Positions 1-297 of a stretch of DNA of 22,860 nt are shown one piece after another (the stretch's first letter is position 1; each line of letters begins with the position of its first letter). A model generated the notes under the pieces. That model was not told where the DNA came from. It searched no databases and saw nothing but the letters and a program-made list of their open reading frames with translations. This DNA comes from a virus (Duplodnaviria; Heunggongvirae; Uroviricota; Caudoviricetes): the IMG/VR virus record IMGVR_UViG_2698536576_000001. One strand, 5' to 3'. The position numbers and the translations under genes were made by a program.

Positions 1-206
1 GGAACGACCTGCTCTCCTGCGGCCACAGCAGTAAGACTTCCCTCCTGGTATTGCTTGCGCCAGAGAAATAACTGGCTGGCTGCCACACCGTGTTGCCGGG
101 CAACAAGGGAGACCGTCATTCCCGGTTCAAAACTCTGCTGAACAATAGCGATCTTTTCCTGTGTAGTACGCCGTCTGCGTTTCTCCGGTCCTAAGACATC
201 AATCAT
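1..206 (-). CDS. insC: IS2 transposase OrfA (InsC), 3' end truncated by window edge
   Basis: Hand translation of the minus strand from the ATG at 206-204 gives [68 protein letters not shown], recognised as IS2 InsC. It is absent from the ORF track because it runs off the window. Confidence 0.85.
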
Positions 207-297
207 CTGCTCTCCAATGACTAGTCTAAAAACTAGTATTAAGACTATCACTTATTTAAGTGATATTGGTTGTCTGGAGATTCAGGGGGCCAGTCTA
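1..297 (-). mobile_element. IS2 insertion sequence, left end (partial; element continues beyond window start)
   Basis: Reverse complement of 190-297 matches the remembered IS2 left terminal inverted repeat (TAGACTGGCCCCCTGAATCTCCAGACAACCAATATCACTTAAATAAGTGATAGTCTTAATACTAGT...), with the terminus at 297. The adjacent minus-strand ORF encodes the InsC N-terminus. Confidence 0.85.

Follow-up and report, generated by a model that had tools for sequence, protein, structure and literature searches.

Does an insertion sequence lying just ahead of the packaging site of a lambdoid prophage silence the head and tail genes beyond it? The question is raised by a 22,860-nucleotide stretch of phage DNA (IMG/VR record IMGVR_UViG_2698536576_000001; 'the window' below means this whole stretch), whose first bases belong to an IS2 copy and whose remainder carries cos, the terminase genes and a head and tail module. 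A preliminary description had proposed that the element could be polar on the structural operon or could separate cos from its upstream context, which would make the prophage defective or leave it dependent on outward promoters carried by the element.

An IS2 terminus at position 297

The window opens with the following feature.

1..297, minus strand: IS2 left (IRL) end, with the IRL terminus at 297, the PIRL region and the start of insC/orfA (ATG at 207)

The reverse complement of positions 1–297 begins with TAGACTGGCCCCCTGAATCTCC (in a longer reading, TAGACTGGCCCCCTGAATCTCCAGACAACC), which is the IRL of IS2, and continues into an ATG-initiated open reading frame; insC/orfA thus lies on the minus strand, starts at the ATG at 207 and reads leftward past the first base of the window. 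The IRL of IS2 is 42 bp long and opens TAGACTGGCCCCC (for its length and for the PIRL region, see PMC3299598). Compared with the annotated IS2A of Escherichia coli K-12 MG1655 (insC1/insD1), 282 of the 297 nucleotides match, and the 87 nucleotides nearest the terminus, which comprise the IRL and the PIRL region, are identical. All 68 visible residues of the InsC/OrfA N-terminus are those of K-12 InsC1, with orfA running inward from the IRL as IS2 requires. The window copy differs from the K-12 copies by ∼5% of its nucleotides, and in the visible part all coding differences are synonymous. At the level of sequence, chance resemblance to IS2 is ruled out, and both the left terminus at 297 and the minus-strand insC of the preliminary description are borne out.

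The same IS2 variant is found in E. coli EC23HZZ201, where a complete copy of 1331 bp (its transposase coding sequence frameshifted) shares 295 of the 297 nucleotides, and neighbouring insertions of this variant in related prophages are likewise 1331 bp long and flanked by 5-bp target duplications. The final IS2 base is window position 297, and the window holds 297 of 1331 bp, orfB (InsD, the DDE/rve transposase that IS2 produces by a -1 programmed frameshift) being expected to the left of base 1; by analogy with these relatives, we infer a complete 1331-bp IS2 with a flanking GGATT duplication.

The element clips the end of a small reading frame

Immediately beyond the terminus, the window matches an uninterrupted prophage of E. 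coli LH85-a with 100% identity over 1.1 kb (from 297/298 on). Position 297 corresponds to position 6001 of the LH85-a locus (L002), within a 68-residue open reading frame (orf68; L002 5820–6026, WP_000548593.1), which defines two features at the junction.

298..322, plus strand: severed 3' end of orf68 (last six codons and stop; ybcW-like, WP_000548593.1, phrog_657, homologous to lambda 47920–48090)
298..302, no strand: right-hand copy of the 5-bp target-site duplication GGATT, predicted from the uninterrupted LH85-a sequence and from the 5-bp duplications at IS2 copies of six relatives

The orf68 product belongs to phrog_657 (E=4.6e-48), a group annotated as of unknown function, and matched no Pfam family; several phage records name it YbcW, and window positions 298–467 are 82.6% identical to lambda 47920–48090. 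The alignment of the flank to an uninterrupted relative, a comparison that the preliminary description had put forward, therefore places IS2 in the last codons of orf68, which is deprived of its six C-terminal residues (YSLVVD). The truncated product is predicted to carry a short IS2-encoded tail. Rz and bor-region genes had been offered as examples of what the element might disrupt, but the sole gene hit is this 68-residue frame, which is neither Rz nor bor.

The GGATT duplication is predicted because the uninterrupted LH85-a site reads ...AATACGAAGGATTATTCCCTGG... (in longer form ...AATACGAAGGATTATTCCCTGGTGGTTGACTGA) and the window junction reads IS2/GGATTATTCCCTGG..., the slash marking the junction here and below. 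A simple insertion would give a right junction of the form ...GGCCAGTCTA/GGATTATTCC... and predicts a left junction ...GATAAGAATACGAAGGATT/TGGATTTGCCCC (also written ...AAGGATT/TGGATTTGCCCC or ...AATACGAAGGATT/TGGATTTGCCCC), where TGGATTTGCCCC is the start of the IS2 right inverted repeat.

The exact junction was searched for at several levels. In a megablast of window positions 1–1400, none of 5,426 complete E. coli genomes matched at 100% across it, an exact 40-mer search of the GTDB representative genomes and an exact 29-mer search of the JGI metagenomes each returned 0 matches, and the 33-residue open reading frame that spans the junction had no record in an exact-protein look-up. The small terminase and portal proteins of the window are widespread, and the junction was absent from the 20 places listed for them. 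That no second instance of the junction turned up in more than 5,000 genomes, and that the window opens inside a multicopy repeat, would suit an assembly artefact in which a contig end was misjoined to a repeat with no real insertion. The join, however, falls exactly at the last IRL base (...GGCCAGTCTA/GGATT), which is typical of transposition and rare in chimeric assembly, and independent genomes have IS2 4 bp and 38 bp away; we consider such an artefact extremely improbable.

The packaging site and the structural module are intact

Downstream of orf68 the window carries a complete set of packaging and structural functions, all on the plus strand.

660..666, plus strand: cosQ-like heptamer GGGTCCT, its first base 29 nt ahead of the cosN nick
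689..700, plus strand: cosN, 12-nt cohesive-end sequence GGGCGGGAGCGT, with lambda-like flanks and at the start of the cdtI and Tritos records
701..874, plus strand: cosB-like region of putative function, lying, as in lambda, after cosN and ahead of the small terminase gene
875..1369, plus strand: small terminase subunit (DUF1441; PF07278, E=2.7e-41; phrog_141 'terminase small subunit', E=7e-74)
1369..3471, plus strand: large terminase subunit of the lambda gpA family (GpA_ATPase, E=1.7e-71; GpA_nuclease, E=6e-85)
3468..22860, plus strand: head and tail module, intact, its final gene running off the window

The position of cosN is fixed by phage records: the first 33 nucleotides of the phage cdtI genome record are window positions 689–721, that record ends ...GGGTCCTTCCGGTGGGGTGGCCTGCCACG, its genome-end sequence being the window cosN, and the Tritos genome record also begins exactly at 689. 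The joined ends of lambda read ...GGGTCCTTTCCGGTGATCCGACAGGTTACG/GGGCGGCGACCT/CGCGG and the window reads ...GGGTCCTCCCAGTGGGGGGCCCTGCCACG/GGGCGGGAGCGT/CGCGG, cosN being flanked by ACG and CGCGG in both. Eight of the 12 cosN bases are those of lambda, the GGGTCCT heptamer stands at the equivalent place in lambda and cdtI, about 30 nt before the nick, and the large terminase is of the gpA family. The two sites differ at 4 of the 12 cohesive-end positions; lambda uses a Nu1 small terminase whereas the window has DUF1441 (a protein identical to WP_000373425.1 of the relatives), and the cosB sequence of the window is unrelated to that of lambda. With a cosQ, a cosN, a cosB-like spacer and a gpA-family large terminase, the region is predicted to be cleaved as a lambda-type cos. 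The distance from the IS2 end is 392 bp to the cosN nick, in keeping with the earlier estimate of ∼390 bp, and 363 bp to cosQ. About 200 bp suffice for a lambda-type cos to function as a unit. The proposal that IS2 separates cos from its context finds no support, as cosQ, cosN and cosB (660–870) are intact and begin 363 bp past the element.

Two details of this region merit mention. The spacer that separates cosN from the small terminase gene holds a 10-bp inverted repeat without mismatches (745–754/761–770; TACTGTAATA/TATTACAGTA, with a 6-nt loop), followed by the T-run TTTTTATTTTT; the element as a whole (745–781) folds as RNA at -17 kcal/mol (z=-4.75) and is also present in uninterrupted relatives, and in EC23HZZ201 a variant of it received a terminator-like flag. 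It may act in the path of the late transcript much as a terminator does or, alternatively, be a terminase-binding site of cosB. The second detail concerns the record of mEp460_4F5 (LR595868.1, L012 1–30), which opens 5 nt before the cosN position and has a cohesive-end sequence 3 nt shorter (GGGAGCGCGG versus GGGAGCGTCGCGG), a gap that is probably an assembly artefact at the genome ends.

The structural module comprises the head-tail joining, portal, ClpP-protease/capsid fusion and decoration genes, the tail genes with tape measure and tip genes, gpJ and the tail fibres. Over 22,564 bases (297–22860) the window differs from the prophage of E. coli ERP001 by 25 SNPs and 0 indels, and all 20 complete structural open reading frames are open, with 0–3 amino-acid differences each from their ERP001 counterparts. 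The head and tail module is also 95–99.9% identical to those of the isolated phages mEp460, mEp460_ev081, Ayreon, phi458 and cdtI. For mEp460, mEp460_ev081 and cdtI this range takes in the terminase genes. IS2 at the window's site was absent from all isolated phages compared (mEp460, cdtI, Ayreon and phi458).

The ERP001 prophage is intact, lies in ydfJ and extends ∼44 kb from the ydfJ fragment to the integrase. On one strand it carries, in order, ydfT (a Q-type antiterminator, PF03589), cspB, the lysis genes essD/ydfR/rrrQ/rzpQ (holin/ydfR/lysozyme/Rz), then cspI, ymcF, ynfR, ynfN, gnsB, orf68, cos and the terminase genes. Location in ydfJ and the upstream genes ydfT, essD, ydfR, rrrQ, rzpQ, cspI, ynfN and gnsB are common to Qin and its full-length relatives; judged by these sequences, the ERP001 prophage is a full-length relative of the K-12 Qin remnant, that is, a Qin/mEp460-type lambdoid prophage. 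Qin of K-12 is without a structural module, in contrast to the complete module in the window.

Several further observations were made on the module and its edges. Eight of the 25 SNPs relative to ERP001 crowd into ∼370 bp (21501–21870), which cover the 3' end of a tail-fibre gene and the start of the next small open reading frame, the remaining 22 kb being near-identical; the cluster is suggestive of a small segment exchanged by recombination in the host-range region. Gene callers differ on the start of the portal gene, placing it at a GTG at 3608 (526 residues) or at an ATG at 3680 (502 residues). The head protease and major capsid protein form a single fused frame of 675 residues (5133–7160; ClpP-like protease plus capsid), as in the annotation of the relatives. 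Base 1 of the window lies in the multicopy IS2 and base 22860 in a tail-fibre gene common to lambdoid prophages, which suggests that the window is a whole short-read contig broken at repeats.

IS2 has entered the interval before cos repeatedly

Chimeric-query searches, one for each IS2 orientation, recovered 7 and 9 genomes with IS2 near this cos. In the gnsB–orf68–cos interval, 12 further distinct IS2 insertions were mapped (loci L001, L003–L005, L007, L029 and L038–L043), at window-equivalent positions -636, -344, -53, 12, 69, 104, 144, 302, 336, 412, 424 and 479. Each has its own matching 5-bp duplication in 11 of the 12 cases; the exception is L043 (-636), whose IS2 is frameshifted, such that scoring for a duplication at fixed length fails. 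A 13th insertion (L006), also with a matching duplication, lies further upstream in DNA missing from ERP001. Ten of the mapped insertions, together with that of the window, occupy ∼470 bp and include both orientations, and the closest of those described here is the complete IS2 of EC23HZZ201, which sits 4 bp from the window's site in the same orientation, with a TATTC duplication and orf68 on its left. None of the 13 lies inside cosQ–cosB or the terminase genes. IS2 has thus landed in this interval often, with at least 12 independent insertions in related prophages, and with no preference for one orientation (6 of the 13 are in minus and 7 in plus orientation). An orientation bias as a sign of selection was considered and discarded: the first 7 genomes were one-way by design of the query, and the mirror query returned 9 of the opposite orientation.

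Other insertion sequences were seen in the late region of these prophages. LH85-a, our uninterrupted reference, has an IS1 of its own in the Rz-like gene (DUF2514; L002 3225–3991), which shows how commonly this region gathers such elements. In GCA_026619755.1 (L028 5866–7196), orf68 and the small terminase gene stand ∼777 bp further apart than they usually do, with no gene called between them, and the extra DNA may be an IS1-sized insertion in the same interval.

Some relatives with IS2 in this interval are degraded. EC23HZZ201 is without a Q gene upstream of the lysis genes, the portal gene of QDFD216 is broken, and ES2 has lost most structural genes; recurrence is therefore a sign of tolerance in the host genome and not proof of phage viability. 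That Qin-type prophages are often degraded, and that some of the IS2-bearing relatives are truncated, also bears on a different view of the window, namely that IS2 marks a rearrangement boundary (an IS2-mediated deletion or inversion, or recombination between two IS2 copies) which has orphaned the structural module from the Q, lysis and immunity genes. The exact junction occurs in none of the collections searched and the left junction lies beyond the window, which begins in IS2 and ends in a tail-fibre gene, in the manner of a short-read contig broken at repeats. Against a rearrangement, 11 of the 12 neighbouring IS2 copies went in by simple insertion, each with a matching 5-bp duplication and with prophage DNA to its left and right (the 12th being the frameshifted IS2 of L043), and the pristine 22.5 kb to the right of the element would be expected after a recent simple insertion more than in an old remnant. 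We regard this view as quite unlikely.

The density of hits could reflect a true IS2 target hot zone, beyond mere tolerance, in the ∼1.1 kb that precede cos in prophages of the Qin/mEp460 type. A reported preference of IS2 for bent DNA (PMC3299598) is a possible cause of such a zone, but the interval could simply be dispensable DNA, and the hot zone itself strikes us as very doubtful.

Late transcription across the element

In the complete relatives, the site of the window's IS2 lies between the lysis genes and cos, in the presumed path of the late transcript. On this point the preliminary description was right, and its further step, to strong polarity on the whole late operon, has to be weighed: under-expressed structural genes would then yield no virions despite an intact module. 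Apart from the position of IS2 between the lysis genes and every structural gene, two observations favour strong polarity. First, on the strand of IS2 that late transcription would follow there is no translation and C outnumbers G (387 C versus 318 G), and its reading frames do not exceed 153 codons. Such a strand is plausible as a target of Rho, and because it is untranslated and C-rich, ordinary RNA polymerase would probably terminate within IS2 on this strand. The polarity of IS2 at galEP3 is due to Rho-dependent terminators inside the element (PMC3737525); galEP3 (gal3) resembles the present case in that IS2 stands between a promoter and downstream genes, there at the start of the gal operon, but gal is read by unmodified RNA polymerase, whereas here Q-antiterminated transcription is expected. 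Second, between IS2 and the terminase gene, a consensus scan found no promoter-like site directed toward cos or the terminase.

Three lines of evidence weigh against strong polarity. (i) Lambda Q has been reviewed as 'a proven polarity suppressor', and Q-loaded RNA polymerase is terminator-resistant across the late operon and transcribes the late genes uninterrupted (PMC12360218); this was shown for lambda Q, and with the PF03589 Q of the present phage group suppression may be incomplete. (ii) In the Stx2 prophage Sp5 of E. coli O157 Sakai, an insertion sequence in the late region, upstream of the lysis genes, is compatible with Sp5 being the most strongly induced of the Sakai prophages, and a marked Sp5 derivative still transfers to K-12 (PMC2669165). 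Like the window's IS2, the Sp5 element lies inside the Q-dependent late region of a lambdoid prophage and interrupts no essential gene. The cases differ in that the Sp5 element is upstream of the lysis genes and hits no coding gene, whereas the window's IS2 is downstream of them and clips a small open reading frame; moreover, Sp5 is of a different phage lineage. (iii) The hairpin and T-run ahead of the terminase gene occur in uninterrupted relatives as well, and antitermination may be needed there anyway: should the hairpin terminate transcription, the structural genes could be reached only by antiterminated late transcripts, with or without IS2. In light of these points, strong polarity appears unlikely, if less so than a rearrangement.

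The element is not expected to drive the structural operon either, as its IRL faces cos, the PIRL promoter in the IRL points inward (PMC3299598) and no promoter-like site was found. An outward promoter borne by IS2 was a candidate that we rejected, since the outward -35 of IS3-family elements lies in the IRR (PMC9330008), here facing away from cos, and the consensus scan was empty. With no known outward promoter at the end that faces cos, the proposed dependence on promoters of the element loses its footing.

Packaging would probably not be compromised by the added DNA. A prophage of ∼44 kb with the 1.33 kb of IS2 amounts to ∼45.3 kb, and isolated phages with this head module have genomes of 42.9–47.0 kb; a genome carrying IS2 would, on these figures, be within the range packaged by this head type. 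Phage PhiR11_1 was considered as an example of a viable phage with IS2 before cos, its IS2 being 642 bp from the end of the record, and was set aside: the record is in prophage order from int, which puts IS2 beyond the tail fibres and shows only that an isolated phage can carry IS2.

A probable near-neutral passenger in a tolerant interval

Taken together, these comparisons lead us to favour the view, which we hold to be probable without being secure, that IS2 is a near-neutral passenger, one of many hits in a tolerant interval, and not an inactivating lesion. IS2, a member of the IS3 family with copy-out/paste-in transposition, would have transposed into a full-length Qin/mEp460-type lambdoid prophage and landed in the last codons of the accessory orf68, in the stretch of morons that separates the lysis cassette from cos. 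Upon induction, Q-dependent late transcripts would enter the element at its IRR end and read it antisense, and Q-modified RNA polymerase would pass the Rho-dependent terminators to which IS2 owes its polarity on ordinary transcription. Altogether, this would cost a dispensable protein six C-terminal residues and add 1.33 kb of DNA to be packaged, with a modest drop in structural gene expression at most. As the window starts inside IS2, this scheme takes the right end of the element, its target duplication and the presence of Q, lysis and immunity genes as assumptions from the relatives. The description of the prophage as defective finds support in the position of the element in the late region, whereas the intact cos, the suppression of polarity by Q, the precedent of Sp5, the packable genome size and the IRL facing cos all speak against it.

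What the window offers is a known element, a known kind of event and a well-known kind of prophage. The boundary of IS2 is fixed, and neither the packaging site nor any part of the complete structural module is affected; the sole coding loss is the tail of a small open reading frame of unknown function, and the importance of the insertion is mainly for annotation. IS2 alone gives no grounds to call the prophage defective. Whether the prophage is active hinges on its regulatory half, which lies outside the window, and on its inducibility. What stands out, if only mildly, is how densely independent IS2 insertions crowd the few hundred bases ahead of cos. If this interval were a true hot zone, recurrent IS2 insertion could be the way in which prophage decay, or recombination between prophages, regularly begins.
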